This document shows positions 20,830 to 64,000 of a DNA stretch of 64,000 nucleotides, in pieces. Source of the DNA: Planctomycetales bacterium (GTDB lineage Bacteria > 4484-113 > JAFGCY01). The translations under genes and the position numbers were made by a program. The notes below the pieces were generated by a model. It saw only the letters and a program-made list of their open reading frames with translations, had not been told where the DNA came from and did not search any database. Every line of letters starts with the position of its first letter. Within the stretch, counting starts at the first letter, position 1. Location: positions 1,495,149 through 1,559,148 of the forward strand of contig CP060262.1 of NCBI GenBank assembly GCA_022646745.1. Reading direction: 5' to 3'.

Positions 20830-20852
20830 TTCTCACTCCAATAGTGGTTAGT

Positions 20853-22587: not shown

Positions 22588-22603
22588 TTCAATACCTCAG
22601 TTG

Positions 22604-23204: not shown

Positions 23205-23223
23205 ATCAGTGCTCCTTCGGAGC

Positions 23224-23288: not shown

Positions 23289-23870
23289 CTACTTCCCGGC
23301 GAATTCCCGCCGCTGCTGCTCGGCCAGTTCGCGGTAGGCCGGTGCGATCCAGCCGTAGTGGTGCACCGCCACCGGTTCACCGAGCCACATCTGCATGCGC
23401 TCGAACACAACCTCCAGCTCATAGCCGCAGTCCTTCAGCCAGCCGGCCTTGGCGGCCTCCGGTTCGATGATCTCGCAGCCGATCCTGACGGGGTCGTGCC
23501 AGTCCATCATCAGCGACTCATAGGCCTTCAGGATGTCCATGCCGACTGCGTCGCGGTCAGCGATGTTGTCATCGACATGCACCGTGATCCAGTAGACCCG
23601 GTTCTGCCCGCGCTGCACGAGGAAGCCGACCACACCGCCGGCCTTGCGCACGGCGACGTAGTACTTCTCGCCGCTGCCCCACAGGCCGGGGTCCTTCTCG
23701 TCCTCGAACTTCTTCTTCAGCCGCTGCAGTGTCCAGGGCGTCGGCTTGCGTTCGCAGGGGTTCTGCGCCATCAGCGGTGCCAGCTGCTCGAGGTCCTTCT
23801 CGAGCACGGGGCGCAGCACGATATGCTCGCCCTCCACGAAACCGCGTTCGGTACTTGCGTTGTCAGTCAT
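23289..23870 (-). CDS. GNAT family N-acetyltransferase (distinct subfamily from the array)
   Basis: GEHIVLRPVLEKDLEQL N-terminal motif. GNAT core. SD AGGAGA with 6-nt spacing. Confidence 0.65.
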   Translation of the reverse strand: MTDNASTERGFVEGEHIVLRPVLEKDLEQLAPLMAQNPCERKPTPWTLQRLKKKFEDEKDPGLWGSGEKYYVAVRKAGGVVGFLVQRGQNRVYWITVHVDDNIADRDAVGMDILKAYESLMMDWHDPVRIGCEIIEPEAAKAGWLKDCGYELEVVFERMQMWLGEPVAVHHYGWIAPAYRELAEQQRREFAGK

Positions 23871-23936: not shown

Positions 23937-24884
23937 TCAGGACTTGTCCACGTCCTCTTCGGCACTCAGCCACTCATGTCCCGTCAGTTCCATGAACACT
24001 TCCTCCATGCCCGGAAGCGCATCCCCCTCGGAGGCTTCGCCGCGCTCGATGCGGCGCTTCAGCACCTGCTGCTTCAGTTCCTCGGAGGTGCCGCGGGCCA
24101 CGAAGCGGCCATCCGCCATCAGCGCGATCCGGCCGCACAGCCGCTCCACCTCGTCCATGTCATGGCTGGTGAGCAGTACGGTCGCATCATGCGTGCGCTG
24201 CAGTTCGAGGATGTAGTCCTGCACGTCACGCTTGCTGCGCGGGTCCAGTCCGGTGGTCGGCTCGTCCAGCAGCAGGAGCACCGGGCTCGTCAGCAGCGCG
24301 CGGGCGATTGCCACCTTCTGCTGCATGCCGCGGCTCAGTTCCTGCATGCTGTCCGTCAGCCGCCCTTCCTCAAGGCCGAGCTTCTGCAGGATCTCCTCGG
24401 CGCGCTTCAGCGCTGACCTGTCGTCAACGCCGTACAGCCTGGCCGCATAGAGCAGGTTCTCGTTCGGTGAGAGCTTCTTGAAGAATGCCGCATCCACGCT
24501 CACGCGGTTCAGCAGCCGCTGCACCTGGTAGCTCTGGCGCAGCGGGTCCATCCCGAACACGCGGATGTCGCCTGAGCTCTGCTCCAGCAGTGTGCTGATC
24601 ATGCGGATCAGCGTGCTCTTGCCACTGCCGTTGTGCCCGACCACGCCGAAGATCTCGCCACGCCTGAGCTGCATGCTGATGTTGTCAACAGCCACCTTGC
24701 GCTTCTTCGGCCGGACCAGCAGGCGGCCGAGCCTTGCCAGGCCGCTGACCGGTGTCAGCTCCTTCTTCGGCACATTGACGATGAAGTGCTTGCAGAGGCT
24801 GCGCACATCCAGTGCGTCAGTCGCCGCATCGACCTTCATCAATTCCAGTTCAGGGTGCAGGCCCGGGGCCTTCACTGCGTCCAT
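23937..24884 (-). CDS. ABC transporter ATP-binding protein (ABC-2/DrrA-like)
   Basis: Walker A GHNGSGKST. Signature LSRGMQQK. Walker B LLLLDEP. H-loop TSHD. SD GAGGAGA with 6-nt spacing. Confidence 0.85.
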   Translation of the reverse strand: MDAVKAPGLHPELELMKVDAATDALDVRSLCKHFIVNVPKKELTPVSGLARLGRLLVRPKKRKVAVDNISMQLRRGEIFGVVGHNGSGKSTLIRMISTLLEQSSGDIRVFGMDPLRQSYQVQRLLNRVSVDAAFFKKLSPNENLLYAARLYGVDDRSALKRAEEILQKLGLEEGRLTDSMQELSRGMQQKVAIARALLTSPVLLLLDEPTTGLDPRSKRDVQDYILELQRTHDATVLLTSHDMDEVERLCGRIALMADGRFVARGTSEELKQQVLKRRIERGEASEGDALPGMEEVFMELTGHEWLSAEEDVDKS

Positions 24885-24902: not shown

Positions 24903-25724
24903 TCAGTCCCCGCTGCCCCTGCGGCAGCTGTATATCAGTTCGCCCCTGCGCTCGGCAAGCGGGCTGCGCTCATAGTCACTGTAGACGGCCTCGATCTCGA
25001 GGCCGCTTCCCTCAAGCAGCAGTTCGGCCTCATTGTGCATCATCCAGCGCATGCGGAACTGCTCCTCGTCGTTGTCAACCACGCGCCCCTTGCCGTCTAG
25101 CCGCTCGAAGCGCATGCTGACATCGTGTACCTGGCTGCGTGCATCCGCGAGGATCCTCGTGTAGCGACGCAGCAGCCCGCCGTCCTCCGTCTCCGTCTCG
25201 AGGTCCTGGCGCCAGGTGCTGCACGCCTCCGCCATCCTGGCAATGAAAGCCAGGTTGGGATCGAACAGGTCAAACACCAGCCGGCCGTCCTCGCGCAGGT
25301 GCCGCCGCACGGCCGCGAGGCAGCTGTGCTGCTCATCACGGCTGATCAGGTGCATGAAAGCGCGGAACGGAATGATCACCAGGTCGTAGCGTGCGTCGAG
25401 TTCAAAGTCCGCCATGCTGCCCTGCACCACGTGCAGGCGCTGTTGCACAGGCTGTTCCTCAGCCGAGAGCTTTGCGCGGAGCTGAGCCAGCATGGAGCTG
25501 CTCAGGTCAAGGCCCGTCACATTGTGGCCATTGCAGGCCAGCGGGATGCTCACGCGTCCCGTGCCGCAGCCCAGCTCAAGGATGTCCATCGCGGGCCGCC
25601 CGGGCAGTGACAGCCAGAACTGCAGGTCCACCGCATCGCGGAAACCGTACAGTTCGTCATACCAGCGTGCCATGCCGCGGTAGCATTCCTCGTTGTCAGA
25701 AAGTATTCCTGCAGTGATGTCCAT
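24903..25724 (-). CDS. class I SAM-dependent methyltransferase
   Basis: Motif I ILELGCGTGRVS. Acidic loop VTGLDLS. ATG 25724 with SD AGGAG at 6 nt (the track extends to 25793). Confidence 0.8.
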   Translation of the reverse strand: MDITAGILSDNEECYRGMARWYDELYGFRDAVDLQFWLSLPGRPAMDILELGCGTGRVSIPLACNGHNVTGLDLSSSMLAQLRAKLSAEEQPVQQRLHVVQGSMADFELDARYDLVIIPFRAFMHLISRDEQHSCLAAVRRHLREDGRLVFDLFDPNLAFIARMAEACSTWRQDLETETEDGGLLRRYTRILADARSQVHDVSMRFERLDGKGRVVDNDEEQFRMRWMMHNEAELLLEGSGLEIEAVYSDYERSPLAERRGELIYSCRRGSGD

Positions 25725-25835
25725 TGCGTACTCCTGTGCTGTCGGGAGGGACCGGCCAGGTTCTTTGCTGGATGCATGCGTGCACGTGTGCATGCGGGCC
25801 GGTCGGTACTTGCCAGTCTGGGGAAGGGGGGGCCG

Positions 25836-26544: not shown

Positions 26545-27174
26545 TCAGTCCTCCTCGACGCCCAGCCAGCGGCGGAGCTTGTTGACTGCGTAGCGCATCC
26601 GCGAAAGCACCGTACTGAGCGGGCATTCGCAGATCTCGGCGATTTCCTCGAAGGTCAGCTCGTGGTAGATCTTGAGGATCACCACGGTCCGTTGCTTTTC
26701 TGGCAACCTGTCTATCAGTACCTTGAGGGTCTCTGAAAAATTCTCACGCTCAAGCACGTTTTCCGGCAGATCCCGGAAATCCTCGATGAAATCCTGGCGC
26801 TCACTGTCGCTGCCCTCGTCGCCCACCGGGGTGTTCAGCGAGAATGTCTGCTTGGCCGCACTCTTCTTCCAGTGGCGCTTGACCTCATTGAGCGCGATCT
26901 TGTAGACCCAGCTGGAGAACTTCTTCTCCGGGTCGAAGTTCTTCGCGCTCTTGAACACCCGCAGGAACACCTCCTGCACGAGGTCCTCGATGTTCTCCCG
27001 CTCGCTGACCTGCTTGCGGATGAAGTTGTAGATCTGCTTGTGGTACCTGTCGAATATCTGGTCGAATGCCGCACCGTCACCGGAGGCCAGGCGCACGACG
27101 AGTTCCTCGTCGCTGCCGGGCTTCGGCACGATCGGCACATCCAGGCTCCGTTTGTTCTGTGCTGTACTTTCCAT
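26545..27174 (-). CDS. RNA polymerase sigma-70 family, ECF subfamily
   Basis: Region 2 (IEDLVQEVFLRVF..FSSWVYKIALNEVK) and region 4 HTH (LTFEEIAEICECPLSTVLSRMRYA). Confidence 0.85.
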   Translation of the reverse strand: MESTAQNKRSLDVPIVPKPGSDEELVVRLASGDGAAFDQIFDRYHKQIYNFIRKQVSERENIEDLVQEVFLRVFKSAKNFDPEKKFSSWVYKIALNEVKRHWKKSAAKQTFSLNTPVGDEGSDSERQDFIEDFRDLPENVLERENFSETLKVLIDRLPEKQRTVVILKIYHELTFEEIAEICECPLSTVLSRMRYAVNKLRRWLGVEED

Positions 27175-51713: not shown

Positions 51714-52091
51714 TTACCCCTGACCTCCGGATACATAGTCCCGCGCGGCGTGGATCATCTCCTCCTCGGCGCGGATCTCCTCGAGGTCCGGCTTGTCAAC
51801 ATAGACCCAGCCTTTCATGGCCTTGCCCGGGCCCATCGGCTCGAAGGGCCGGCCCCGGCCCTCCTCGAACATCTCGTTGGCAAGTTCCTCACTGAGCTTG
51901 AGGGTGATGCCGTGTTCCCAGGCGGAGACGAAGAGCTTCTTCTTCCCGCCCACCAGCACGTACCAGGAGGGATGGCCCATCATCTGCCCGCGTACGATGC
52001 CGTCGTCGCCATCAAACAGCTCGTCCAGCAGCTGCACCACATCCTCGCGGTAGCCCGGCCAACCTGATTGTTCCTTCTTCTTCGTTGCCAC
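51714..52091 (-). CDS. MmcQ/YjbR-family protein (putative)
   Basis: C-terminal W.YV....LEEI...EEMI..ARDYV pattern. Confidence 0.4.
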   Translation of the reverse strand: MATKKKEQSGWPGYREDVVQLLDELFDGDDGIVRGQMMGHPSWYVLVGGKKKLFVSAWEHGITLKLSEELANEMFEEGRGRPFEPMGPGKAMKGWVYVDKPDLEEIRAEEEMIHAARDYVSGGQG

Positions 52092-52469
52092 CTAATTCCC
52101 CTTGCGCTGGTTTGTGGAAAACAGGCCGATGTGGTTGCCATGCGGGTCCTCGAAGGAAGCCCACCAGCCAAAGCCGGTGTCCTCAGCCCCGATATGCAGG
52201 CGTTCCGTCAGCACCTTCCCGCCGAGTTGTGTGACCATTGCCAGCCGGGCCTCCAGGTCCTCGACCTTGACGAAAATTACCGGGCCGGACCTCGGGCTCG
52301 GTTCGCGGCCGGTGGTGAATCCGCCACCCAGTCCCTGCTCGCCGTCATTGAACAGCAGGTAGCTCTCCGTATTGGGCACGAAGCTCCAGCCGAACAGGCT
52401 GCCGTAGAAGTCCTGCGACTCGGCCAGGCTGCGTGAGGGTATGTTGATATGGCAGATGCTGTCAGGCAT
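52092..52469 (-). CDS. VOC (glyoxalase/bleomycin-resistance) family protein
   Basis: HINIPSRSL..FYGSLFGW and HGNHIGLF VOC motifs. Confidence 0.7.
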   Translation of the reverse strand: MPDSICHINIPSRSLAESQDFYGSLFGWSFVPNTESYLLFNDGEQGLGGGFTTGREPSPRSGPVIFVKVEDLEARLAMVTQLGGKVLTERLHIGAEDTGFGWWASFEDPHGNHIGLFSTNQRKGN

Positions 52470-52489
52470 GGTCTACTCCAGAGGGATCA

Positions 52490-53005
52490 TCATGCCAATG
52501 TACCAGAGGGACGGATCGCATCCTCCACCGGCCGGCCCTCGGCATAGTCCTTCAGGCGCTTGCCCAGCAGTTCGGTCCAGCCCTCGACGTAACCGGAGTG
52601 GCTGTCCTCGGCGTACTGGTTGAAGCAGTGGTGGCTCAGTTTCACCGTCGTGCCCTTGCCATCCTCCCTCGTCTCGAACACCAGCCGGAACATGCCGGCC
52701 CCGCTCCACATCACGCCCTCCGGGATGGAAAAGCTGATCATCCGGCCCGGGCTCAGGCTCTGCACCATTGCCCACAGGCAACCGCCGCCTCCTTCCCAGA
52801 CCTCCATCAGCCTGCCACCGGGCTGCTGCTCGATGACAATCTCCGTGGTGCGCGGGCCGCCCATCACCCAGTCCCGGCTCCACCAGTGCGAAATGCCGTT
52901 GACATAGGCGTCGTAGACATGGGCCGGTTCGGCGTTGACAGGAATCTCCTGCTCAATCTGCACGAAGGCATATTCAACCCTGTCAGTCTTTCCCTCAATC
53001 TTCAT
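52490..53005 (-). CDS. SRPBCC (Aha1/activator of Hsp90 ATPase-like) domain protein
   Basis: I.A.PE.V..A......W......G..T.F.LV SRPBCC pattern and the GYVEGW C-terminal motif. Confidence 0.65.
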   Translation of the reverse strand: MKIEGKTDRVEYAFVQIEQEIPVNAEPAHVYDAYVNGISHWWSRDWVMGGPRTTEIVIEQQPGGRLMEVWEGGGGCLWAMVQSLSPGRMISFSIPEGVMWSGAGMFRLVFETREDGKGTTVKLSHHCFNQYAEDSHSGYVEGWTELLGKRLKDYAEGRPVEDAIRPSGTLA

Positions 53006-53027
53006 TCCCGCTCTCCCTGTCTCGCAG

Positions 53028-53657
53028 TCACTCGGAATCCATCGGCATCACTTCAAGCGGCACGATCGCATCCTCGATCACTTCGCCCTCGCAGTACATG
53101 CGGAAGTTCTCGGCCACGAGCTTGGTCCAGCCGAAGGCGTAGCCCTCCGCGCCGTCAATTTCAGCATCGTACTGCTGGAAGGAGCGGTGCTCAAGCAGCA
53201 GGTCCGTACCGCCTTCGGTTCCCGGATTGAAGCTGATGTTGATCGAACCGGCCCCGCTCCAGAAGCTGCCCTCTGGAACGCTCATGCCGAGGAAGCTGCC
53301 CGGGACCACCTGGATCACGTTGGCCCACAGGCTTTCGCCGTTCTCGTCAATCTCCAGCAGGCGTCCACTGGCGTAGGCCTCCAGCTGCATGTTGAGGCAG
53401 CTTTCGCCACCCATCGTGAAGCCCTTGCTCCACCAGTTGCTGGTTTCGCCGACGAACTTCTCATATACATCCCAGGGTTCCAGCTCGAGGTGCATTGCCA
53501 GAGTCACGCTGGCATCGCCAACCATGGTTTCCTGCCAGCTCGTCTCAATCGAATAGGGCAGGCCAGCTTCACTGCCGGACTCCTGTGCGAGGGCCTGTCC
53601 GCCAGATGCGAGGCTGGCCAGCAGCAACGCGATGATGATCCGTGTTCCCATTGTCAA
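53028..53657 (-). CDS. SRPBCC domain protein with signal peptide
   Basis: Signal peptide IIIALLLASLASGGQALA. GFTMGG and GYAFGW Aha1 motifs. Confidence 0.6.
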   Translation of the reverse strand: MTMGTRIIIALLLASLASGGQALAQESGSEAGLPYSIETSWQETMVGDASVTLAMHLELEPWDVYEKFVGETSNWWSKGFTMGGESCLNMQLEAYASGRLLEIDENGESLWANVIQVVPGSFLGMSVPEGSFWSGAGSINISFNPGTEGGTDLLLEHRSFQQYDAEIDGAEGYAFGWTKLVAENFRMYCEGEVIEDAIVPLEVMPMDSE

Positions 53658-53680
53658 CTCCTTTAGCTACGGCCTGCCTG

Positions 53681-54196
53681 TCAGGCCTGTTGCCGAGCCC
53701 ATTCCGGTTCATGTCCGAGGCCCAGCCTCGTACCATTCTCGCACCAGTTGCGCAGGCGCTCGCCCAGCAGGTCATCCCAGCCGCGGCCGTAGTTCTGCTG
53801 CTGCTCGGGCTTGAACAGGCCGAGCGCGCTGTGGCGGAACTTCAGTATGGTGCCACCGTTGCCGTTGTCACTGAGCATGTAGCTCCAGTTGCCGAAGCTC
53901 GGCCAGGCCATCCCACAGCTGCCCTCAAGCTCGAGGTAGCTGCCGGGAGTGAAGCCGCTGATGATGCCCCAGACGACATGCGTGCCGTCGGCACCCTTCT
54001 CAAGCATTGCGCCGCCGCCGCGCAGCTCCAGGCTGATTTCCACCGTGTCATCACAGCACTTGTAAGGCGCACCCCACCAGGCCTGTGTTTCCTCGGTGAG
54101 TGCCCGCCAGACGCGGTCCGGAGGCGCAGCGATCGTGTATTCGGCCTGGACCTCCATCCGGTTCAGGCTCACTACCGGTAGTGCATTGTCAGTCAT
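53681..54196 (-). CDS. SRPBCC (Aha1-like) domain protein
   Basis: IAAPPDRVWRALTEE..W; GRGWDDLL. Confidence 0.65.
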   Translation of the reverse strand: MTDNALPVVSLNRMEVQAEYTIAAPPDRVWRALTEETQAWWGAPYKCCDDTVEISLELRGGGAMLEKGADGTHVVWGIISGFTPGSYLELEGSCGMAWPSFGNWSYMLSDNGNGGTILKFRHSALGLFKPEQQQNYGRGWDDLLGERLRNWCENGTRLGLGHEPEWARQQA

Positions 54197-54240
54197 TGCT
54201 TGCTCCTTTGTTCCACCCCTTGGACGCCCGCTGGCGCGAA

Positions 54241-54597
54241 CTACTGTGCGGCCGGGTTCTGGTGCAGGCCGACGATGTTGCCACTGGGGTCCTTGAAGAA
54301 TGCGGACCAGCCGACATCGGGGCTGATTTCCATCTTCGGCACGACGACCGTGCCGCCCAGCTGGGCCACCTTCACGAGCGCTGCGTCAATGTCATCGACA
54401 TTCACGTAGACCACCGTCTGCGGGGTGCCCTCCGGGCAGTTCTCGCGGAAGCCGCCGCCGGGACCGCTGTCCGGCATCCAGACATCATAGCCGGGCATGA
54501 AGGACTGCATCTTCCAGCCGAACAGGCCGCCGTAGAACTCGGACAGTGCCTTGTTGTCAGCGGAAGCGAATTCTATCCAGTCAATGTGAAAAGCCAT
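54241..54597 (-). CDS. VOC family protein
   Basis: FHIDWIEF..FYGGLFGW; PSGNIVGL. Confidence 0.7.
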   Translation of the reverse strand: MAFHIDWIEFASADNKALSEFYGGLFGWKMQSFMPGYDVWMPDSGPGGGFRENCPEGTPQTVVYVNVDDIDAALVKVAQLGGTVVVPKMEISPDVGWSAFFKDPSGNIVGLHQNPAAQ

Positions 54598-54669
54598 TTC
54601 CCTTTCTCCTGTGATCCGGGGGAGGCGCTGCCCGGCCGCAGTGCGGCTGGCAGCACCTCCCGCCTGGTA

Positions 54670-55023
54670 TTACTCCTGGCTCCAGATGCCGACGCAGGTG
54701 CCGCTCGGATCAAGGAACAGGGCAAAGCTGCCGTGCTCATCGGAAATCTTGGTCTTCGGCATCACCTGGGTGCCGCCGTTGGCCGTGATCGTGCCGAGCA
54801 TCTCGTCAATGTTGTCAACATGGATGTAGATCAGCGTGCGCTGCAGCTCAGGCGTCTTCTCCTCAACACGGAAACCGCCGCCCAGCTCACCCTCCGCCGG
54901 AACCCAGCCGCCGTAGTTGGGCATCAGGTCGTTGCACTGCCAGTTGAACACCTTGCTGTAGAAGTCCTTGGTGCCCTCCAGGTCGTGGGAGACGATTTCG
55001 ATATGACAGATCTTGTGTGCCAT
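54670..55023 (-). CDS. VOC family protein
   Basis: ICHIEIVSHDL..FYSKVFNW; PSGTCVGI. Confidence 0.7.
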   Translation of the reverse strand: MAHKICHIEIVSHDLEGTKDFYSKVFNWQCNDLMPNYGGWVPAEGELGGGFRVEEKTPELQRTLIYIHVDNIDEMLGTITANGGTQVMPKTKISDEHGSFALFLDPSGTCVGIWSQE

Positions 55024-55107
55024 CTTGTTTTCCTACCTCTCTATATGAATATGGTGTGGTTTGCATGCATCGCCCCGCCCGCTGGGCAGGACGTTCAATG
55101 CACATTG

Positions 55108-55638
55108 TCAGTGGTTGTGGCCCGCATGCGGGTCCGCTTCAGCGGCGGCTTCCTCAAGCTCCGGATGGGGCATTGAGGCTTCGGACGCGAACAGGCCGAG
55201 CAGGTTGCCATGCGGGTCGTGGAACATGCCGATGAAGCCCTCGCCGACATAGACCTCCATCCCGCTTGGCACGCCGCCGGCAGCCTCGATCGCCACGTAG
55301 GCATCGGAGATGTTCTCCGTGTAGATGTAGAGCACGACACCGCCGTCCATCGGCGGGGCGTCCACGGTGAATCCACCCATGCCGCTGCCGCCATCGCTCC
55401 AGAACATGTATTCCATGCCCTCCGGTCCCGGCACGGTGGTCCAGCCGAACACGTTGCCATAGAAGGCGGCGGACTCATCCAGGTTGAGGCTCGGGATCTC
55501 CATGTGCACGATCTGGCCCGGGGCGGGGTTCCACTCCGGCATCGGTGCATCGGATCCGGCCTCCTGGGCAAACGCCAGGCACGACATCAACAGCAGCGCA
55601 CAGAGCGCCGTCAACAGGTAACGCATTTTCCTAACCAT
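55108..55638 (-). CDS. VOC family protein with signal peptide (secreted or periplasmic)
   Basis: Signal peptide LLTALCALLLMSCLAFAQ. HMEIPSLNL..FYGNVFGW; PHGNLLGL. Confidence 0.65.
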   Translation of the reverse strand: MVRKMRYLLTALCALLLMSCLAFAQEAGSDAPMPEWNPAPGQIVHMEIPSLNLDESAAFYGNVFGWTTVPGPEGMEYMFWSDGGSGMGGFTVDAPPMDGGVVLYIYTENISDAYVAIEAAGGVPSGMEVYVGEGFIGMFHDPHGNLLGLFASEASMPHPELEEAAAEADPHAGHNH

Positions 55639-55697
55639 CCTTTCTATATTGCCAACGGGACCTTCCCGCCGGCGAAAATGCCAGATTCAGCCGGTTG

Positions 55698-56222
55698 TCA
55701 GCCGTTCGGGCTGATCAGTCCGAGCATGTTCCCCTGGGGATCGTTGAACAGCCCGACAGTCGCCTTGCCGCCCTCGATCTCCATCGTGAAGTCGATCGAC
55801 CGCCCGCCGGCGCGGTTGATCCGCTTGAAGCTCTCCTTGATGTCATCGCTGAACAGGTAGATCACCACGCCCCGGCCATCGCCGGGTGCCACGAAGCTGG
55901 TGATCCCGCCGGTGTTGCCGGCCGGATCCTCCCAGTTGAGGATCTTCCCGTTGGTCTCCTCGTTGTCGGTGATGTTCCAGCCGAACACCTCGCTGTAGAA
56001 CTCGCGGGATTCCTCCAGGTCATTGGACGGAATGTCCACCCGGATCATTGCGCCATCCACCATGCCGGGGATCTGCGCCGCCATCTCGCGGCCAGTCAGT
56101 TCCCCGGCTGCGGCAGGCTCAGCCTCAGCGGCTTCACCATCCTGGGCCTGCACCCGGTTTAAGCCGAGCAGCATCAGCAGGCAGAGCAGTACGAGCAGGT
56201 TCAGTGAATAGAGAACTTTCAT
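55698..56222 (-). CDS. VOC family protein with signal peptide
   Basis: Signal peptide LLVLLCLLMLLGLNRVQAQ. FYSEVFGW; PQGNMLGL. Confidence 0.65.
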   Translation of the reverse strand: MKVLYSLNLLVLLCLLMLLGLNRVQAQDGEAAEAEPAAAGELTGREMAAQIPGMVDGAMIRVDIPSNDLEESREFYSEVFGWNITDNEETNGKILNWEDPAGNTGGITSFVAPGDGRGVVIYLFSDDIKESFKRINRAGGRSIDFTMEIEGGKATVGLFNDPQGNMLGLISPNG

Positions 56223-56310
56223 GATTCAGAATTCCCGAATGACTTAACTATACACATGTTAGGCGATAAATGCAATAGCATTCACCACTCATTATGTATA
56301 TTCCACAGCG

Positions 56311-56820
56311 CTACTTGTTCATCTCCTCCAGCTTGCGCCAGTCGAGGTCATCCTCCACCCAGTGGCGCAGGGACTTCAGCAGGCCGACACTCCCTTCGGT
56401 ACGCCCGTCAAGCATCTGCTGGGTGATGTGGCCCATCATCTCGCCGCGCGTGCGCAGCAGGGTACCGCCGTCCTGCTCCGTCAGCTTCCATAGACCCCCG
56501 CTGTTGATCGCTCCGAACATTCCCCACTGGCCAACGGCGGCAAAGGCGTTCGGCGGGTCGCAGTAGGTGACCATTCCATAGAGCGCGCCATTGCCCTTGT
56601 CATCAAAGCGCTCTTCCCAGCGTCCCATCACGCGCGGCTCGATCACGACGATGCTGCCCGGCTTGAAGCGGTGCGGCCACCAGTTGTCCATCCCGTCGAT
56701 GATCTTCTCCCAGGCCCTGCCGATCGGCGCGCGCAGGAAGATCTCATACTCGGAGCTGACCAGTTCGACACTGAGCGGGTCCTTGAACTTGAAATCGACT
56801 TCACGGTTTGCGGTATCCAT
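56311..56820 (-). CDS. SRPBCC (Aha1-like) domain protein
   Basis: RAPIGRAWEKI..WW SRPBCC pattern. Confidence 0.6.
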   Translation of the reverse strand: MDTANREVDFKFKDPLSVELVSSEYEIFLRAPIGRAWEKIIDGMDNWWPHRFKPGSIVVIEPRVMGRWEERFDDKGNGALYGMVTYCDPPNAFAAVGQWGMFGAINSGGLWKLTEQDGGTLLRTRGEMMGHITQQMLDGRTEGSVGLLKSLRHWVEDDLDWRKLEEMNK

Positions 56821-56843
56821 TTACATTTCCTCCATGTTCGCGT

Positions 56844-57320
56844 TCAGGCCTGCCCGCCCTCGAGCAGGGCCTTCAGCTTCCCTTCATAGACTTCTGCGCT
56901 GCCGGCCAGCATGTTGGCGATCATCTTCTGGGACACGTCGCCGGCGGCCAGCGTCACCTCGCGCAGCAGGGTGCCGCCGTCCTTCTCCTCGAGCTCGAGG
57001 TCGAAGATGAAGTGCACGGCCTTCAGCATGCCGACATTGCCGCTGTAGCGCAACCGGTAGGGCGGCAGGATCATCTCCACCGTGCCGTACAGCACCCCGT
57101 TGCCACTTTCATCGAACTGCTCGAAGAAGCGGCCACCGATGCGCGGCTCGAGGATGATGCTGTGCGGGTTCTCGCTCCAGGTATGGGTCCAGTACAGATG
57201 CGGTTCCTCCACGAGTGCGCGGAAGGTACGCTCCACCGGGGCGTTGATGAACACCTCATAGTCGATGCGGAACCTGCCGACCTCGCTGAGCACCTGGTGT
57301 GTATCTGTTGTCATTTCCAT
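56844..57320 (-). CDS. SRPBCC (Aha1-like) domain protein
   Basis: INAPVERTFRALVEE..W; GVLYGTV. Confidence 0.6.
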   Translation of the reverse strand: MEMTTDTHQVLSEVGRFRIDYEVFINAPVERTFRALVEEPHLYWTHTWSENPHSIILEPRIGGRFFEQFDESGNGVLYGTVEMILPPYRLRYSGNVGMLKAVHFIFDLELEEKDGGTLLREVTLAAGDVSQKMIANMLAGSAEVYEGKLKALLEGGQA

Positions 57321-57362
57321 AACCGCCTTGTATTCGTAGTGGCGCTGCCCCGCGCCCCGTCC

Positions 57363-57941
57363 TCAGGCCAGTCGCTCGACAGGAGCCCCGGCCATGCGCA
57401 GCATCGTCTGGGTCACCGTGCGGTGCCCGTTCTCATGGGCCAAAAGGAAGAACAGCGCGCTGCCCAGCGTGCCCGGCCCCTTGGCCTCCAGCTGACTGGT
57501 GTCCTCGCCCTTCTCCCGCATGGCTGCCAGCGCCTTCTCCCAGGCCGCGACCGTGCCTGCAGTCGGCAGGGGCAGCTCGCCCATCGGCCGTTCGATCCAG
57601 GGCTGCACAAGCTTCCGGCTGGATTCCAGTGCTTCCATCACCTCACTGTGGCTGCCGGTCCGGAAGGTCCAGGGCTGGTCGATACCCGGATAGGGCCCGG
57701 CCCAGCGTTCGTAGGCATGCTCCTCCGTCCCGAGCTGCGAGACGATCCACATCCGGATGTCCGTGATGTGCATCAGCTGCTCACCGAGGCTGAAGGCGAA
57801 GTCGCCCGCCGGGAACTCCGGCCGCCAGTCCAGAAGCTCCGGTGTCACGAAGCCGGCTATCTTCTGCGTGTAGTCCAGCATCACGCCGATGCTCCAGATC
57901 GCATCGCAGATCCTCATTTCCGCCGTGTTGTGTGTTGTCAT
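57363..57941 (-). CDS. DinB/YfiT-like (DinB_2) metal-dependent hydrolase-fold protein
   Basis: H..(D/E) triad-like pattern (LGEQLMHITDIR..HENGHR). Confidence 0.55.
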   Translation of the reverse strand: MTTHNTAEMRICDAIWSIGVMLDYTQKIAGFVTPELLDWRPEFPAGDFAFSLGEQLMHITDIRMWIVSQLGTEEHAYERWAGPYPGIDQPWTFRTGSHSEVMEALESSRKLVQPWIERPMGELPLPTAGTVAAWEKALAAMREKGEDTSQLEAKGPGTLGSALFFLLAHENGHRTVTQTMLRMAGAPVERLA

Positions 57942-57964
57942 TTCAGGTTCCTTTCAGGTATGTC

Positions 57965-58537
57965 TCAGTTGCGATCGGCTGCCGCGCCCTGCGGCCGCAC
58001 CATGAAGGCCAGCACCACCCCGGCCAGCGTCCAGCTGACCATGCTGTCCATCAGCTGCAGCACCGTATGGCGCATCGGGAAGTGGTAGAAGCCGCCATCC
58101 ACCCACTGCGTGCAGAAGAAGGCTGCTGCCCCGAACAGAGTGCAGAACAGGATCCGTCCCGCGCGGCTGGAGCCTGCCGGCAGCACGCTGACGAAGATGG
58201 CAACGAGGATGCCGGCCACGATGCAGCCCAGCAGGCCGCGGATGTAGGCCCAGGGGTTTGACATGTCAAAGCCGCCGGCGCTGAAGGACATAATGCCGAT
58301 GTTCGGCACGCTCTTGGCAAGCTCCATGTACTCCCCCTGCTCCATGCCCTCGTAGCTCGGGTAGTAGTTCAGCCCGTCCTTCGCACCATGCTGGATCAGC
58401 AGGGCGTCGATCTGGGCATCGTGCTTGATTCCGTTGAGGCTTTCACCGTGGAATGGCAGCGCCATCCAGGAAATCGTCAGCCAGATGAAGATCACGAGGC
58501 CAGCCAGCGCCCCCGCAATGATGTTCATGACATTCAT
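57965..58537 (-). CDS. hypothetical membrane protein
   Basis: Four hydrophobic helices. ATG at 58537; the ORF extends to 58579. Confidence 0.4.
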   Translation of the reverse strand: MNVMNIIAGALAGLVIFIWLTISWMALPFHGESLNGIKHDAQIDALLIQHGAKDGLNYYPSYEGMEQGEYMELAKSVPNIGIMSFSAGGFDMSNPWAYIRGLLGCIVAGILVAIFVSVLPAGSSRAGRILFCTLFGAAAFFCTQWVDGGFYHFPMRHTVLQLMDSMVSWTLAGVVLAFMVRPQGAAADRN

Positions 58538-58585
58538 ATTCCCACTCCTGAACGAATTGTCCTGCCCTGATTCTGGCACATCCCG

Positions 58586-58933
58586 CTATTTCCCGTCCTT
58601 GTCATCCCTGTTGAGGTCCTTTTCCACATGGTCCTTCAGGCGCAGAAGCGAGCTGGACCACAGTTCGGCGTACGGACCCATCCAGCGCTCGTACACCTGC
58701 CGGATCGGCACCGTGTTCAGGTAGTTGAAGCGCTTGCGCCCCTCGCGCCTGACCAGCACCAGCCCCGCATCCGCCAGGATGCCAAGGTGCTTCATCACGG
58801 CAAAGCGCGAAAGTTCGTCGAAAGCCCCGCACAGCTGGCCTGTCGTCCTCGGCCCCGGCTTCAGCAGATCCAGGATCCTCCGCCTCGTCGGATCCGCCAG
58901 TGCCTTGAAGACTGCATCCAGCGCATCATCCAT
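58586..58933 (-). CDS. ArsR/SmtB-family transcriptional regulator
   Basis: HTH region LADPTRRRILDLL..TTGQLCGAFDELSRFAVMKHLGIL. First gene of the co-directional VOC/SRPBCC unit. Confidence 0.75.
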   Translation of the reverse strand: MDDALDAVFKALADPTRRRILDLLKPGPRTTGQLCGAFDELSRFAVMKHLGILADAGLVLVRREGRKRFNYLNTVPIRQVYERWMGPYAELWSSSLLRLKDHVEKDLNRDDKDGK

Positions 58934-59099: not shown

Positions 59100-61178
59100 A
59101 TGAGAGTGAATGGAACCTTATATGTGCTGCTGGCAGCCATACTGCTGGGCAGTGGCTGTGCAAGGGCAGGAGTGTCGGACTCGGCACAGGAGATCAACCC
59201 CACGCAGCAGATTGCACTTGCTGGCGCGGAATCCAGCCTTGGCATCCCCGCACCTACCGAGCTGCTGCGCATATCCAGCGCGGACCATCCCGGATTGCAG
59301 ATCAATGGCAGCGCATATTCCACGTCCTTCGGGCCGCAGCTTGTGGCTGGAAATGGGAACACTGCCATTTTCAGCCCGGACTGGAACCCGGGCGACAACG
59401 AATCGGCGATGCAGCCGGCCTGGGCGGCCTGGATGCTGGACCTGTCCGCTGAGACTGACACCAATGTGCTGAAGCTCAACTGGCTGAACGAGCCGCTTGA
59501 GGGTTACATCGCGCTGGCGGACTGGGGCAGTGACCGCTGGGTCTGGCGCAACTTAAGCAACCCGGCGGAGCTGGAGTTCATGCCATCCGCCTCCCTGCTG
59601 CATCCGGGTGACGACTTGCTGGCCTGCGTGGTCCTGGCAACGGGGCAGGACCAGTCCGTGCTGGCAGGCATCCAGGCGGTGTTCCGTGATGACGTGCCGG
59701 GCGGCTTCATCAATGATGGCAACCCGCTCGGGATGAACCTCGAGGGCCTGTCGGACTGGGGCCGCAGCATCCCGTTCACGGATGTGTTCAAGCTGTCGCG
59801 CAGCTGGATCCCGCAGGAGGCGGATGGCTGGACCTGGGACACCGGTGAGACGCTGGACATCGATGCCAACGGCTGGGTGGCCAGCCTTGAGCCGGGGCAG
59901 GCCGCCGGCAATGTGCTTGTCACCAACAACGCGGGCAACTATCCCGAGGGTGACTACATCTGCCTGTACGACGGCGAGGGCAGCATCAGCTGGGGCATCA
60001 ACGCCAGCCTCGTGAGCGAGGAGCCCGGCCGCCAGGTGGTACACATCACCCCCGGTGCTGACAACACGGCACACCTGAAGCTCACCGCCACCAACCCGTC
60101 TGACCCCGTGCGCAACATCCGCCTGCTCCTGCCCGGCCATGAGGCTGACTACGCAGGCAATGTCTGGAACCCGGAATTCGTTGCCACGCTCGAACCCTAT
60201 TCCAGCCTGCGCTTCATGGACATGATGAACACCAACGGCACGCAGGTCGAGCACTGGAGCGAACGCACCACGCCGCAGCATGCCAGCCAGGCCCGCAATG
60301 CCGGCATCTGCCTCGAATACATGGTGCTGCTTGCCAACCAGGCGCACAAGGATCCCTGGTTCTGCATGCCGCACCGCGCTGATGATGACTACATCACGCA
60401 GTTCGCCAGCATGGTGCGGGACACGCTGGACCCCGAGCTGCGCATCTACATTGAGTATTCCAATGAGGTCTGGAACGGTTCATTTCCGGCGGCCGGCTAT
60501 GCGCAGCAGCGCGGGCTGGAACTCGGCCTGTCGGAGAATGACTACGAGGCGCACCTGCGCTACTACTCGCAGCGTTCAGTCGAGATCTTCGCGATCTGGG
60601 AGGATGTCTTCGCCGGGCAGGAGGACAGGCTGGTGCGCGTGATCGCCGGCCAGCATGTCAACGCCTGGGCGGCGGACCAGATCCTCGACTGGCAGGATGC
60701 CTATGCCAAGGCGGACTGCTATGCCGTCGCGCCGTACTTCGGCGGCGGGATCGGCAACTCACCGAACGCCGATGCGGCCCTGACGATGTCACTGGCTGAG
60801 ATCGTGCAGTTCTGTGCGGACAGCCTGCCCCAGACCTATGCCACGATGCAGGAGAACGCGGAGGATGCGCACAGCCGCGGCTTGAAGCTGATTGCCTACG
60901 AGGGTGGCCAGCATATGGTGGGTTATGGCGAGTGGCAGAACAATGATGCGCTGACCGCCAAGCTGACCGCTGCCAACCGTGATCCCGGCATGCGCCAGGT
61001 CTACAAGGACTACCTGGACTACTGGACCCTGGCCGGCGGCGAGCGCTTCATGGCCTTTTCGCATATCGGCGGCTACGGTCGCTACGGCTCCTGGGGCGTG
61101 ATGGAACGCCTGGCACAGCCACTCAGTGAAAGTCCGAAGCTTGAAGGCCTGCTGGACTGGCTGGCCACACAGCCGTGA
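59100..61178 (+). CDS. lipoprotein, putative clan GH-A-like glycoside hydrolase (weak)
   Basis: Lipobox LGSGCA. SD AAAGGA. Candidate acid/base EYSNEVWN and nucleophile IAYEGGQH placement resembles the (beta/alpha)8 clan A. Assignment is tentative. Confidence 0.4.
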   Translation: MRVNGTLYVLLAAILLGSGCARAGVSDSAQEINPTQQIALAGAESSLGIPAPTELLRISSADHPGLQINGSAYSTSFGPQLVAGNGNTAIFSPDWNPGDNESAMQPAWAAWMLDLSAETDTNVLKLNWLNEPLEGYIALADWGSDRWVWRNLSNPAELEFMPSASLLHPGDDLLACVVLATGQDQSVLAGIQAVFRDDVPGGFINDGNPLGMNLEGLSDWGRSIPFTDVFKLSRSWIPQEADGWTWDTGETLDIDANGWVASLEPGQAAGNVLVTNNAGNYPEGDYICLYDGEGSISWGINASLVSEEPGRQVVHITPGADNTAHLKLTATNPSDPVRNIRLLLPGHEADYAGNVWNPEFVATLEPYSSLRFMDMMNTNGTQVEHWSERTTPQHASQARNAGICLEYMVLLANQAHKDPWFCMPHRADDDYITQFASMVRDTLDPELRIYIEYSNEVWNGSFPAAGYAQQRGLELGLSENDYEAHLRYYSQRSVEIFAIWEDVFAGQEDRLVRVIAGQHVNAWAADQILDWQDAYAKADCYAVAPYFGGGIGNSPNADAALTMSLAEIVQFCADSLPQTYATMQENAEDAHSRGLKLIAYEGGQHMVGYGEWQNNDALTAKLTAANRDPGMRQVYKDYLDYWTLAGGERFMAFSHIGGYGRYGSWGVMERLAQPLSESPKLEGLLDWLATQP

Positions 61179-61187
61179 GGGCCCGCA

Positions 61188-64000
61188 CTACGGTATCAAT
61201 TCAGCTTCAATTGTGTATGCGAGATCCTCGCCACCGCTGACAATGATGTAATAGGTCTGGCCGTTGGTGACTGGCCAGCGGGCCATCTGCGCACCGTTGG
61301 GTGTGTCGCGTTTGCCCTTGTTGACAGTGCTTGACCAGAACTGTTCGGCTATCAGCAGGCTGAAGTTGACGGGGCTGTTCTCCCAGGGGGTCACTACAAC
61401 CTGCAGCAGTCCGTCAGTGTCGGCGACGTACTTGTGATAGTCGCTGCTGTCCCGGCCCATCGGCTTGTTGTCATCATCCCCGTCCAGCGTTGCTGAAACA
61501 CTGAAAGGCAGGCTGATGACGGCTGCGGCAATGGCATTGTCATTCGGTTCCAGGCTGTCATTGTCCGAGAAGCTGGCGGTGAAGTCCTGCACCACATCCG
61601 ATCCGCTTACAACGACCGGCACCTTGCCGGCCGGTACAACGGACCTGTTGGCAATCTGCCACTCGATCTCGTAGTTCCCGTCAGGGTAGTAACCGAGGTC
61701 ATATCCATTCGTGAATGCATCAACCGCATAGCCGGTCGTGTGGTTGACGACATGCATGTAACTGTATCCCTCATTCATCACACCGTGGTCGAGGCTGCCG
61801 CTGATGTTGTGGACGGGGAAGCCTGCCTTGTCCAGCGACAGTGAATACGTTGATTCACCCTGGCCCGATACTGCGACCTGGACGATGTAATCGCCCGCTG
61901 CATCAGCATCAAAATAGAAGCTGTGGCTGCCCTGCTCCTCATGCGAATACAGCAGGCTGAATGCGGGGCTGTCGTAGATCCTGGTCCTGTACGTGATGTC
62001 CTGGGAATCACTCTGGATGCTGATGGCAAGCGGATAGGCATCATCCAGTGCAAGCAGGTAGTTGTCATAGAGGTCATAGTCTGAACTGATCGTGGCCTCG
62101 AACTCGTCAGGCCAGTCCACGCTTGCAGCACCAAGCAGGTCATCATTCGGTTCATGCGAATCCTTGCCGATGCTTGCCGTTGGCGTCAGTTGAATGTCGC
62201 TGTTGCTGAACTGCACCCATTCATAGGCAGGGTTGAAGTCGGTTCCATGGCGCTGGTGGTTGACGAACACACGCTCGCCGGGCATGAAGGCAATGTCAAT
62301 CGAGGCAATTCCATCGGCACCGGCGCTGTCAATGTCCGTGTAACCACCGACTTCAATCTGCACGGCCAGTTCCGCATCATCCAGCGGTTTTCCATCAAGC
62401 ATGTAGTTCGCCGAAAGGTACACCGGGTCATAGCTGGCAACGTCAAGCTCATATGGCATCAATGTGCCTTCCATGAACACTTCAAGGTAGTAGGTCCCGG
62501 CGTCCAGTGGATTGCGGCTGCGCGCCTGCATACCAGTGACGCCGAATTTATCCAGCGTGATGTTGCTGTCGGCGGCGTCCCGCAGCCTGATTTGGCCACT
62601 GGAATAGAAATCCCTTGGGGTATGCTCCGGGAATCTCAGTCTGGCCATCAGGTGCTGGCCTCCCGGTACTTCAAAACTGAAGTAGTCGTAATCATCGCCG
62701 TTGGTCAGGTCATATCCGCCGATCCAGCCTTCAACGGGTGCAGCCAGCGGCAGGCTCAGCGGAGTGGCATTTGCCTTGTCGTCATTCGGCTCCATCGTGT
62801 CCGTCGGGGCTGTGCCCTGCATGTTGAAGTCGTAGTTCAGCGGCCCAGTGGAAAAGTCGTGTGTCGTGCTCAGCGGACTGAACACATACTGCGGATCAAG
62901 CGGGGTGATGACGGCCTCGAAGGGAGGGATATGCCGATGGTAAATCGACCCCGTGCCTTCCGTTGCCATCGTGCTGGTGACACCGTCAACCTCAACCGTC
63001 ATTGTCGTTGTGTATAGCTCTTCATACAGACCGTCATCCCCGTCGCCCGGTCCGCCGCCATCCCCGAGGTACACGAGCATTTCCTGTGGCTGTCCGCTGT
63101 GGATGCTGAGCGAGTAGCTCCCTCCACCGCCCTGGCAGTCCACCTTGACGATGTACTCGCCGCTGCGCTGGAAGTAGTAACCGATCCAGTTGGCTCCGTA
63201 GAGAACGTCGTTTGAGTATGTGGCATCCTTGTTCGGATCGACGAACAGCTGCAGTCCGGGAAACAGGATGCCGTCATCGCCAACATACTGGACGTAGTAC
63301 CAGCCCTCCGCAGGGATGCTGAATGCATAGCAGTCAATTTCGTCATCGAGGATGCTCAGCGTTGCATCCAGCAGCGGACCGGCACCGAAGTCATAGCGGT
63401 TCTCCTGGAAATCATTCGGCTCGAATGCATCAGTTTCAACAAATCCGCTGGTCTTGGGGCTGCAACGCAATTCAATGCCAGCCAGGTCCGCATCCGCGAC
63501 CGTGAAGTTCTGTGCGGCAGGGAAGAACTCATAGCCGCTGATCGATGCCATCAGCGTCCAGTTTCCATTCGGGATCGCATTCAGCGTGAAAGACCCATCC
63601 GGCTCGGTCAGAACGGCCTGCGGATCAAGCAGGTTCGTGGTGACCAGCGCGCCGGCGACCGGATTGTCCTCCATGTCCAGCACGACCCCGCTCACATCGT
63701 AGCGATTCAGGTAGTCAATGCTCACGCTCTCCACGCTGAAGACCGGATCCTCATCAGCCAGCACGGCCACGTAGACAAACCCGGCCGGGGAGCTGTGCTG
63801 TCCCGGGTTGCCCACCAGCGGTGTGCTGAATGAACTGCCGTCACCTTCACTGCCCAGCCATTCCCAGCGCCCGCTGGAGTAGTCCGCAATTCCTATCCAG
63901 TAATGTGAGCCGGGATCCGCCGTCGTGATTGCCACGTTCACGAGGCCGATACTGTCCTGCGGAGTGCCCGGAAAGCGCCAGATCGCGAACTCGCTCTGCC
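61188..64000 (-). CDS. large secreted protein with at least four PPC (pre-peptidase C-terminal)-type domains and a carboxypeptidase-regulatory-like domain (5' end beyond the window)
   Basis: Repeated (F/M/H/L)EPND....A..(L/I)....G.(L/I)...DD.D.Y.F modules. The reading frame stays open upstream of the GTG at 63939-63941 out to the window edge. Confidence 0.55.
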   Translation of the reverse strand, partial: QSEFAIWRFPGTPQDSIGLVNVAITTADPGSHYWIGIADYSSGRWEWLGSEGDGSSFSTPLVGNPGQHSSPAGFVYVAVLADEDPVFSVESVSIDYLNRYDVSGVVLDMEDNPVAGALVTTNLLDPQAVLTEPDGSFTLNAIPNGNWTLMASISGYEFFPAAQNFTVADADLAGIELRCSPKTSGFVETDAFEPNDFQENRYDFGAGPLLDATLSILDDEIDCYAFSIPAEGWYYVQYVGDDGILFPGLQLFVDPNKDATYSNDVLYGANWIGYYFQRSGEYIVKVDCQGGGGSYSLSIHSGQPQEMLVYLGDGGGPGDGDDGLYEELYTTTMTVEVDGVTSTMATEGTGSIYHRHIPPFEAVITPLDPQYVFSPLSTTHDFSTGPLNYDFNMQGTAPTDTMEPNDDKANATPLSLPLAAPVEGWIGGYDLTNGDDYDYFSFEVPGGQHLMARLRFPEHTPRDFYSSGQIRLRDAADSNITLDKFGVTGMQARSRNPLDAGTYYLEVFMEGTLMPYELDVASYDPVYLSANYMLDGKPLDDAELAVQIEVGGYTDIDSAGADGIASIDIAFMPGERVFVNHQRHGTDFNPAYEWVQFSNSDIQLTPTASIGKDSHEPNDDLLGAASVDWPDEFEATISSDYDLYDNYLLALDDAYPLAISIQSDSQDITYRTRIYDSPAFSLLYSHEEQGSHSFYFDADAAGDYIVQVAVSGQGESTYSLSLDKAGFPVHNISGSLDHGVMNEGYSYMHVVNHTTGYAVDAFTNGYDLGYYPDGNYEIEWQIANRSVVPAGKVPVVVSGSDVVQDFTASFSDNDSLEPNDNAIAAAVISLPFSVSATLDGDDDNKPMGRDSSDYHKYVADTDGLLQVVVTPWENSPVNFSLLIAEQFWSSTVNKGKRDTPNGAQMARWPVTNGQTYYIIVSGGEDLAYTIEAELIP

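Follow-up and report, generated by a model that had tools for sequence, protein, structure and literature searches.

An ArsR-headed array of SRPBCC, VOC and DinB-fold paralogues conserved in the UBP7 / 4484-113-like bacterial lineage

In this report we describe a 14-gene array found on the minus strand, at positions 51714-58933, of a 64,000-nucleotide stretch of a Planctomycetales bacterium genome (assembly GCA_022646745.1, contig CP060262.1, positions 1,495,149 to 1,559,148), hereafter called the window. The array is headed by the gene of an ArsR-type regulator and encodes further an orphan membrane protein with four predicted transmembrane (TM) helices, a DinB_2 protein, five SRPBCC/AHSA1 proteins, five single-domain VOC (glyoxalase-fold) proteins and one small protein of restricted distribution. 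Comparison with related genomes indicates that the array is a lineage-specific expansion of the widespread, already noted ArsR–SRPBCC (AHSA1) module. We read it as an autorepressed, organic-ligand-responsive stress or xenobiotic cassette of binding or modifying proteins placed on both sides of the membrane, an interpretation for which, in our judgement, the case stands about evenly balanced. Detoxification or sequestration of multiple substrates, partly outside the cytoplasm, is plausible by analogy at the level of the protein families.

Organization and gene content of the array

The open reading frames (ORFs), numbered g01 to g14 from the regulator onwards, are all co-directional and separated by gaps of 0-88 nucleotides (nt). 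Our gene calls are consistent with the NCBI locus tags KDL29_05465 (g14) to KDL29_05525 (g02), and both confirm the coordinates and gene order given in a preliminary description of this DNA. That description counted thirteen genes, while its own list sums to the 14 found here. It also spoke of alternating VOC and SRPBCC genes; both families are present, but the real layout is one of blocks, the DinB gene being followed by two SRPBCC, four VOC, three SRPBCC and one VOC gene and then by g14, and the alternation is loose.

The regulator g01 (58586-58933, 115 amino acids, aa) belongs to the ArsR/SmtB family of helix-turn-helix proteins: it scores 45.8 bits against Pfam HTH_20 (cut-off 27), 32.7 bits against HTH_5 (cut-off 22) and 60.1 bits against the NCBIfam model HTH_metalloreg NF033788 (cut-off 55), and it matches PDB entry 3f6o with an E value of 2.5e-15. 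Three of the five SRPBCC proteins, all of them cytoplasmic, pass the gathering score of 22.1 bits of AHSA1 (PF08327), namely g04 (56844-57314, 156 aa) with 36.8, g10 (53681-54196, 171 aa) with 29.3 and g12 (52490-53005, 171 aa) with 28.9 bits. The cytoplasmic g05 (56311-56820, 169 aa) and the putatively exported g11 (53028-53651, 207 aa) have no Pfam match even at E<=10; judged by pairwise comparison they are clear SRPBCC paralogues, g05 being 37% identical to g04 (E 9e-26) and g11 42% identical to g12 (E 6e-33). A word-indexed homologue search with g11 returned 3 proteins only, and the same search with g02 and g14 returned 8 each, as expected of families confined to the lineage or of members that evolve fast.

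All five VOC proteins pass the gathering score of 20.6 bits of Glyoxalase (PF00903). These are g06 (55698-56222, 174 aa, 37.7 bits) and g07 (55108-55626, 172 aa, 27.3 bits), both predicted to be exported, and the cytoplasmic g08 (54670-55023, 117 aa, 32.3 bits), g09 (54241-54597, 118 aa, 28.3 bits; 43% identical to g08) and g13 (52092-52469, 125 aa, 33.6 bits). The DinB/YfiT-like four-helix-bundle protein g03 (57363-57941, 192 aa) matches DinB_2 (PF12867) with 29.5 bits against a cut-off of 24.8. The three Pfam families by which the preliminary description had proposed to check its folds are therefore recovered in five of five VOC proteins, three of five SRPBCC proteins and g03, respectively.

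Inside each family the paralogues are old, with identities of 24-43%. Hidden Markov models (HMMs) built from these families gave zero matches in the other 57 kb of the window, and the clustering of the families in the array is for this reason not a matter of chance.

Conservation of the array

The array lies at the same chromosomal site, between the gene of a 692-aa protein and the genes of an M3 oligoendopeptidase and ThyX, in loci L007 (4484_113), L011 (the same as L015; UBP7 HKST-UBA03), L012 (a JGI metagenome) and L014 (metagenome-assembled genome, MAG, AC1.30). Together with the window, it is kept in at least five MAGs of the UBP7 / 4484-113-like lineage; three UBP7 MAGs are reported in a 9-year study of saline activated sludge (PMC8495973). 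The genes show 1:1 orthology with those of L007, L011 and L012 at 53-95% identity (g11 is missing from L012), the orthologues of g01 being 84-95% and those of g04 76-90% identical. The ratio of nonsynonymous to synonymous differences (pN/pS) is 0.08-0.65 for every gene, at a synonymous divergence (dS) of about 0.4-2, which points to purifying selection on the genes of the array. Pfam matches, paralogue comparison and 1:1 orthologues together support the earlier claim of an ArsR-headed, co-directional and conserved cassette of VOC, SRPBCC and DinB-fold paralogues.

Some members vary. One extra exported SRPBCC gene is present in L011 and L014, and L014 contains also a second g02-like gene. A rearranged array was found in two more distant MAGs, L016 and L017, whose ArsR proteins are 73-76% identical to g01. 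The order there is ArsR, two DinB genes, one or two g02-like genes and an exported SRPBCC, then three SRPBCC genes, an exported VOC, a VOC and a final SRPBCC; in comparison with L017, L016 alone carries an exported YciI-like protein before the exported VOC and a lipoprotein before the final SRPBCC.

Two observations concern single genes. The pair g02 and g03 (57363-58537) is 57-58% identical to its counterparts in L011 (2689-3871), as against 71-95% for the other twelve genes, and L016 has two copies each of the g02-like and DinB genes; old duplicates may have been lost differentially, or a paralogue may have taken the place of the original gene. Just upstream of g14, a partial relic of a g14 duplicate is seen in L012 (9772-9912), where it forms a 46-aa ORF 68% identical to the N-terminus of g14, and in L007 (about 14640-14790); the relic is absent from the window.

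Promoters, candidate operator and spacers

A search upstream of position 58933, suggested in the preliminary description, yielded a conserved promoter with a candidate palindromic operator directly before the ArsR gene (P1, 58935-58974, minus strand). It consists of a -35 element TTGACA (58974-58969), a 16-nt spacer and a -10 element TACCCT (58952-58947). The pseudo-palindrome ATATGTTAC-N6-GTCACATAT, at 58958-58935, is an inverted repeat with 9-nt arms that are 89% complementary, and it ends 1 nt before the ArsR ATG. Upstream of ArsR, 7 lineages have in common CTTGACA, a 16-17-nt spacer, TAC(C/T)(C/A)T and ATGTTAC-N6-GTCAC, with CTTGACA and ATGTTAC...GTCAC being invariant. The complete motif occurs once in the 64 kb window, and no further copies of the operator were found there at up to 2 mismatches. 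An ArsR message starting from P1 would be nearly leaderless, and this layout, with the putative operator lying over -10 and +1, is as expected of an ArsR-type autorepressor.

A second promoter-like site, P2 (56247-56275, minus strand), sits in the 88-nt spacer before g06. It comprises TTGCAT (56275-56270), a 17-nt spacer and TATAGT (56252-56247), with ACATGT abutting the -10 element, and is conserved in 5 lineages as TTGCA...ACATGTGTATAGT; it is not called by a consensus promoter scan. Because this conserved site precedes g06, the array may comprise two transcription units, g01-g05 and g06-g14. Of the single co-directional unit described earlier, the co-directionality with short gaps holds for all 14 ORFs.

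The conserved spacers contain no Rfam family at E<=1. The spacer between g06 and g07 (55627-55697) is highly conserved in four lineages and has a predicted stem-loop, GCCGGCGG-N7-CCCGTTGGC, in which changes are one-sided, with no compensatory pairs, and which has no Rfam match. In some relatives short G+C-rich hairpin repeats resembling repetitive extragenic palindromic (REP) elements precede the ArsR promoter, in the interval that separates it from the upstream gene: L007 has three in tandem (7490-7600; ...CATTGCCCGGxTTGCxCCGGGCCTCC...), L012 one and the window none.

The ArsR regulator and its SRPBCC partners

For a wider comparison, 185,579 species genomes were scanned with an alignment of the ArsR protein, which gave 216 relatives, and the best 80 were annotated with iterated family HMMs. 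An SRPBCC domain adjoins ArsR on the same strand in 77 of the 80, and in 39 of them the two share one ORF (for example in L025, L031 and L047, 10001-10789). Pfam confirms such a fusion, HTH_5 plus AHSA1, in a 262-aa Ktedonosporobacter protein. Since such fusions exist, they suggest that SRPBCC proteins serve as the ligand-sensing partners of the ArsR DNA-binding domain. Long arrays were found among the best 80 in L013-L017 only, and L018 (Pyrinomonadaceae) has a small set of SRPBCC, VOC and DinB genes.

At about 20 sampled loci, the genes following fused regulators encode SnoaL-like proteins (5), DinB, AHSA1, an MFS transporter, an alpha/beta hydrolase, DUF4126 and a few unrelated or unassigned proteins; they appear to be mostly of small ligand-binding or xenobiotic type. 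The gene of the fused regulator overlaps, in Ktedonosporobacter rubrisoli, with the beginning of that for a 595-aa MFS transporter (efflux-type), and in several Bacteroidota and Chloroflexota loci a SnoaL-like gene follows the fused ArsR–SRPBCC regulator. ArsR–AHSA1 operons have been noted in Frankia, with no function given (PMC4531530).

The array shares its ArsR subfamily (at 51-76% identity) and the SRPBCC linkage with the ArsR–AHSA1 pairs and fusions of Actinomycetota, Chloroflexota, Planctomycetota, Acidobacteriota and others. It differs from the simple pairs in having 14 genes, among them five SRPBCC and five VOC paralogues, three of these predicted to be exported, and in that the membrane protein and DinB genes separate ArsR from the first SRPBCC gene.

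The g01 subfamily is recognized by the motifs SRFAVMKH, in the recognition helix, and IRQVYERW; its invariant residues are those of the recognition helix SRFAVMKH and two C-terminal Trp. Metal stress, one of the roles named earlier for these families, is not borne out by the regulators: among 84 subfamily members no conserved Cys or His ligand and no alpha5 His/Asp cluster was found, and the sole Cys of g01, C35, is present in 26 of the 84. As the ArsR lacks conserved ligands of this kind, a metal signal seems unlikely.

Predicted export

A hydropathy and charge heuristic flags, among the 14 array proteins, g06, g07 and g11 only, plus the first TM helix of g02. The three have a K/R-containing n-region, an uncharged hydrophobic core (10-residue Kyte-Doolittle mean 2.8-3.5) and cleavage sites of the AxA type, AQA|QD, AFA|QE and ALA|QE, respectively. 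The signal peptide of g06, MKVLYSLNLLVLLCLLMLLGLNRVQA|QD, is kept in L007, L011, L012 and L014; that of g07, MRYLLTALCALLLMSCLAFA|QE, is conserved in its orthologues; and that of g11, MGTRIIIALLLASLASGGQALA|QE, is kept in L007, L011 and L014, the gene itself being absent from L012. Signal peptides thus persist in every orthologue despite sequence drift, and the clade has, as far as these predictions go, conserved the occurrence of these folds side by side in cytoplasmic and in exported form.

Of the exported members proposed in the preliminary description, two VOC and one SRPBCC protein are thereby retained, and the possible lipoprotein is not: no conserved lipobox cysteine ([LVI][ASTVI][GAS]C) was found in the array orthologues, and the Cys residues in the signal peptides of g06 and g07 lie outside any lipobox and are not conserved (it is missing from h07 and j07). 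We prefer the word extracytoplasmic to periplasmic, the type of envelope, diderm or not, being not readable from the window.

An exhaustive HMMER search with the mature domain of g06 gave 2029 relatives at E<=1e-3, and most of the top 150 either have two domains and about 245 aa or are cytosolic and about 118 aa long. Signal peptides are carried by at least 11 of these 150 nearest cluster representatives, so exported VOC proteins, described earlier as unusual, are indeed a minority, yet they are not unique to the array. Four of the 11 (P0035, P0055, P0056 and P0123, about 290-300 aa) are fusions of a YciI-like and a VOC domain behind a signal peptide, and in L016 (15218-15712) an exported YciI-like gene stands directly before an exported VOC gene. 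These exported fusions and adjacent genes suggest that YciI and VOC form a functional pair outside the cytoplasm.

Relatives and metal sites of the VOC proteins

The nearest solved relative of the VOC proteins is Rv0577 of Mycobacterium tuberculosis (3oxh; E 1.6e-10 with g08), and the best NCBIfam model is that of the AfsK-binding protein KbpA (NF053614), with 26.6-39.8 bits against a cut-off of 250 (E 4e-10 to 4e-6). With scores below the cut-off and a single VOC domain each, they are not members of the KbpA family. Rv0577 (CFP32) and KbpA of Actinomycetes consist of two VOC domains in tandem (about 245 aa) and lack a Sec signal, whereas the array proteins are single-domain (117-125 aa when mature) and two of them have signal peptides. 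The majority of the 2029 relatives found with the g06 domain belong to the Rv0577/KbpA type. The kinship with bleomycin- and fosfomycin-resistance proteins suggested earlier gives way, accordingly, to Rv0577/KbpA-like relatives, with Pfam Ble-like_N just passing its cut-off of 24.5 bits in g06 (28.6) and g07 (24.7).

Metal ligands, whose inspection in each VOC had been proposed, were located by approximate alignment with Escherichia coli GloA (H5/E56/H74/E122), and the following positions are indicative only. None of the five proteins keeps the glyoxalase I quartet. Gly stands at the E122 position in each of the five and in their orthologues, the first His (H5) is replaced by Arg in g06 and Trp in g09, no conserved His is found at the H74 position and the E56 region is deleted. 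As the quartet is not kept, the VOC proteins are probably not canonical glyoxalase- or FosA-type metalloenzymes; they more likely serve in binding or carry out non-canonical chemistry.

The DinB, membrane and g14 proteins

The His...HxxxH triad of g03 (LMHITD, AHENGHR) is kept in all orthologues and in both copies of L016; the protein has no sequence match in the PDB. The membrane protein g02 (57965-58537, 190 aa) has four TM helices in its AlphaFold2 (AF2) model (predicted local distance difference test, pLDDT, 73), with a loop of about 65 residues after the first. It has no Pfam or NCBIfam match and the model no fold match in the PDB, and a word-indexed search among 5.8 billion proteins returned 8 relatives only. 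Distant relatives of g02 occur without ArsR, alone in Planctomycetes-like contexts.

An analogy with the SdpR/SdpI pair of Bacillus subtilis, an ArsR-type autorepressor plus a membrane immunity/signalling protein, was considered and rejected. The likeness lies in an ArsR-family gene directly followed by the gene of a small polytopic membrane protein. However, g01 scores 55.9 bits against the SdpR model NF033789 (cut-off 100, E 3e-15), g02 is without a match to SdpI/YhfL and has four TM helices as against six in SdpI, and the distant g02 relatives lack an ArsR gene.

The last gene, g14 (51714-52091, 125 aa), whose start codon abuts the stop codon of g13, encodes a small alpha/beta protein without Pfam, NCBIfam or PDB sequence match even at E<=10. 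Its relatives in the word-indexed search are 8 proteins, all restricted to the lineage. The best Foldseek matches of its AF2 model (pLDDT 85) are 2od0, 2a1v (DUF419), 2fki (YjbR) and 2oc6 (DUF1801), and they are weak (E 4e-3 to 0.2, template-modelling scores 0.43-0.64; for the first three, E 4e-3 to 0.1 and scores of 0.5-0.6). The modelled fold is weakly YjbR/DUF419/TfoX-N-like, with a weak resemblance also to VP1028. An earlier label of MmcQ/YjbR-like thus finds some echo in the fold of the model and none in the sequence, which does not match PF04237 at E<=10.

Neighbouring genes

The ORFs flanking the array at 59100-61178 (plus strand, 692 aa) and 61188-63941 (minus strand, 917 aa) stand beside it in all relatives. 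The former has no family match; the latter has a CarboxypepD_reg domain only and is, by eye, acidic and repeat-rich. The window contains also a second tandem array (16926-23870, minus strand), made up of about 12 paralogous ORFs (181-216 aa) in which the stop codon of one often overlaps the start codon of the next; they encode GNAT acetyltransferases (Pfam Acetyltransf_3; four members were scanned and three matched). It is flanked by ORFs named from their sequences as ABC-2-type permease-like (15941-16888), ABC ATPase-like (23937-24884), methyltransferase-like (24903-25793) and extracytoplasmic function (ECF)-sigma-like (26545-27174).

Discussion

The interpretation which we favour, that of a ligand-responsive cassette, can be outlined as follows. 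An ArsR dimer would bind the pseudo-palindrome overlapping the -10 element and the mRNA start and in this way repress its own operon. The signal would be an organic, probably hydrophobic or aromatic molecule rather than a metal, captured, as the fusions suggest, by a helix-grip SRPBCC protein working with ArsR. De-repression would then supply, judging by family membership, the small four-TM membrane protein, a His-triad metalloenzyme of the DinB type, which is probably a thiol transferase or hydrolase, and four cytoplasmic SRPBCC and three cytoplasmic VOC proteins, which would bind or modify the compound or compounds inside the cell. Two VOC and one SRPBCC protein, exported by Sec, would do likewise outside the cytoplasmic membrane. 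From the conserved promoter-like site before g06, the nine distal genes may be expressed separately or at a basal level. Each paralogue could have its own ligand, which would make the cassette broad in scope, because the paralogues share 25-43% identity with each other and yet each is kept 1:1 across species.

Binding rather than catalysis has models in drug-sequestering self-resistance proteins of the same superfamily folds, i.e. the bleomycin- or mitomycin-binding VOC proteins BLMA, Sh Ble and MRD and the SRPBCC proteins CalC, CalU16 and CalU19. They differ from the array in that no PDB matches to them were obtained and that the array stands outside any biosynthetic cluster. A link of these folds to genotoxic stress is known from mycobacteria. 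VOC genes are at the top of the DNA-damage-linked SigG regulon of M. tuberculosis (PMC3776920), and in Mycobacterium smegmatis genotoxic stress induces DinB_2 and glyoxalase-like genes that lie together (PMC10693628). The DinB_2/DUF664 genes of the latter are controlled by SiwR, a WYL-domain activator sensing single-stranded DNA, with a palindrome in the promoter and induction by H2O2 and zeocin (PMC10693628). As in the array, DinB_2 accompanies glyoxalase-like genes under a dedicated local transcription factor with a promoter palindrome; unlike it, the SiwR system has an activator instead of an ArsR repressor, two genes instead of 14, and neither exported members nor SRPBCC proteins.

Several points weigh against this ligand-responsive cassette. 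No efflux pump, oxidoreductase or recognised resistance gene is found in the cassette. The metal quartet of glyoxalase I is missing from every VOC protein, and their nearest named relatives, Rv0577 and KbpA, are not detoxifiers, so the VOC proteins may bind proteins or act otherwise. In the window the first SRPBCC gene is the third gene after ArsR and not directly adjacent to it, and no single SRPBCC paralogue stands out as the ArsR partner, the best hits of adjacent or fused SRPBCC domains being scattered over g10 (28), g12 (21) and g04 (14). P2 has the ACATGT part of the P1 motif only, the right half of the palindrome being not conserved there, and in the consensus scan promoters and terminators are no more frequent than by chance, none of the latter falling inside the array or behind it. 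The calls of export come from a home-made hydropathy and charge heuristic plus orthologue conservation. Finally, the neighbourhood is one of vertically inherited housekeeping genes (ThyX, M3 peptidase, Ffh), which fits a constitutive physiological role as well as defence.

The last point leads to the view that the array is a general-stress or housekeeping cluster without common substrate logic, made of tandem duplicates with modest independent roles beside an ArsR–SRPBCC pair. The core-genome location with vertical inheritance, the gain and loss of single members between lineages, and the GNAT array of about 12 paralogues, a sign of a tendency to tandem arrays in this very window, all agree with it. 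We nevertheless hold it unlikely, as gene order, member-specific export and promoter/operator are conserved over dS>1, and the same mix of families recurs in L016 and L017 after rearrangement; these features speak for a functional unit. A sensing or regulatory system, in which VOC proteins would be modulators of the KbpA/Rv0577 type and SRPBCC proteins receptors, with the exported copies and g02 relaying an extracytoplasmic signal to ArsR, could draw on the VOC matches to Rv0577 and (below threshold) to the KbpA model, on the absence of the catalytic metal quartet and on the fusions showing that SRPBCC can serve as the regulator's sensor domain. Yet the scores of 27-40 bits with the KbpA model are far under its cut-off (250), the array VOCs have one domain as against two in KbpA and Rv0577, the array has no kinase or other signalling partner, and ten paralogues are too many for a relay, which makes such a system quite unlikely.

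Two further readings concern chemistry. Ring-cleaving dioxygenases or isomerases occur among VOC proteins and maleylpyruvate-isomerase-like enzymes in the DinB superfamily, and with cyclase- or dehydratase-like SRPBCC proteins the array might act on an aromatic or polyketide-like compound in a catabolic or tailoring pathway; g04 has a weak match to TxnO9 of trioxacarcin biosynthesis (E 0.003), and SnoaL-like genes follow related regulators. Still, this is improbable, since the VOC proteins are single domains of about 118 aa without metal ligands, the cassette has no oxygenase, reductase, coenzyme A ligase, polyketide synthase or transporter, and exported copies are ill-suited to a cytoplasmic pathway. 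The other would be a metal or metalloid stress operon, with a classical ArsR/SmtB sensor over CadI/ArsI-like VOC proteins, which are ArsR-linked in other bacteria. Membership of g01 in the ArsR family and its weak NCBIfam match to CmtR (40.7 bits, cut-off 150) would be in line with this. Against these stand the occurrence of C35 in a minority of the subfamily, the missing alpha5 His/Asp site, the lack of ars, czc or cad transporter or reductase genes in the array, and VOC proteins without a vicinal Cys pair and metal ligands, and we regard a metal operon as very improbable indeed. An organoarsenical or cadmium role of the ArsI/CadI type was likewise rejected, Cys pairs and metal ligands being absent.

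The ligand-responsive cassette has also a bolder form, which we put forward as speculation and consider rather unlikely: a two-compartment "molecular sponge" of UBP7, in which an ArsR repressor relieved through an SRPBCC ligand receptor would switch on diverged SRPBCC, VOC and (in relatives) YciI binders capturing a range of natural-product toxins on both sides of the membrane. If true, this would be a broad-spectrum, sequestration-based resistance island of a new type, and the ArsR–AHSA1 pair, very common as it is, would have its first assigned function.

Neither the linkage of ArsR to SRPBCC nor any of the folds in the array is new in itself. What is new is that the array is so large and fixed in its order, that it is kept across an uncultured lineage of phylum rank, that its exported paralogues have cytoplasmic counterparts and that its candidate operator is sharply conserved. 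ArsR–SRPBCC (AHSA1) pairs and fusions are among the commonest uncharacterised regulator–effector modules of soil, sludge and marine bacteria, and companion small VOC, DinB, YciI and SnoaL-like proteins are equally common. The array described here is the largest and most ordered example among the loci examined and offers a tractable entry point to this common module, with a sharply defined candidate operator, paired cytoplasmic and exported paralogues, and an unfused regulator, whose partners are therefore testable separately. Should sequestration or detoxification prove false, what remains would be a lineage-specific multiplication of stress proteins, ordinary in kind, within an uncultured phylum; should it prove true, the SRPBCC and VOC folds would work also outside the cytoplasmic membrane, and the array would provide a testable model for the whole ArsR–SRPBCC class.

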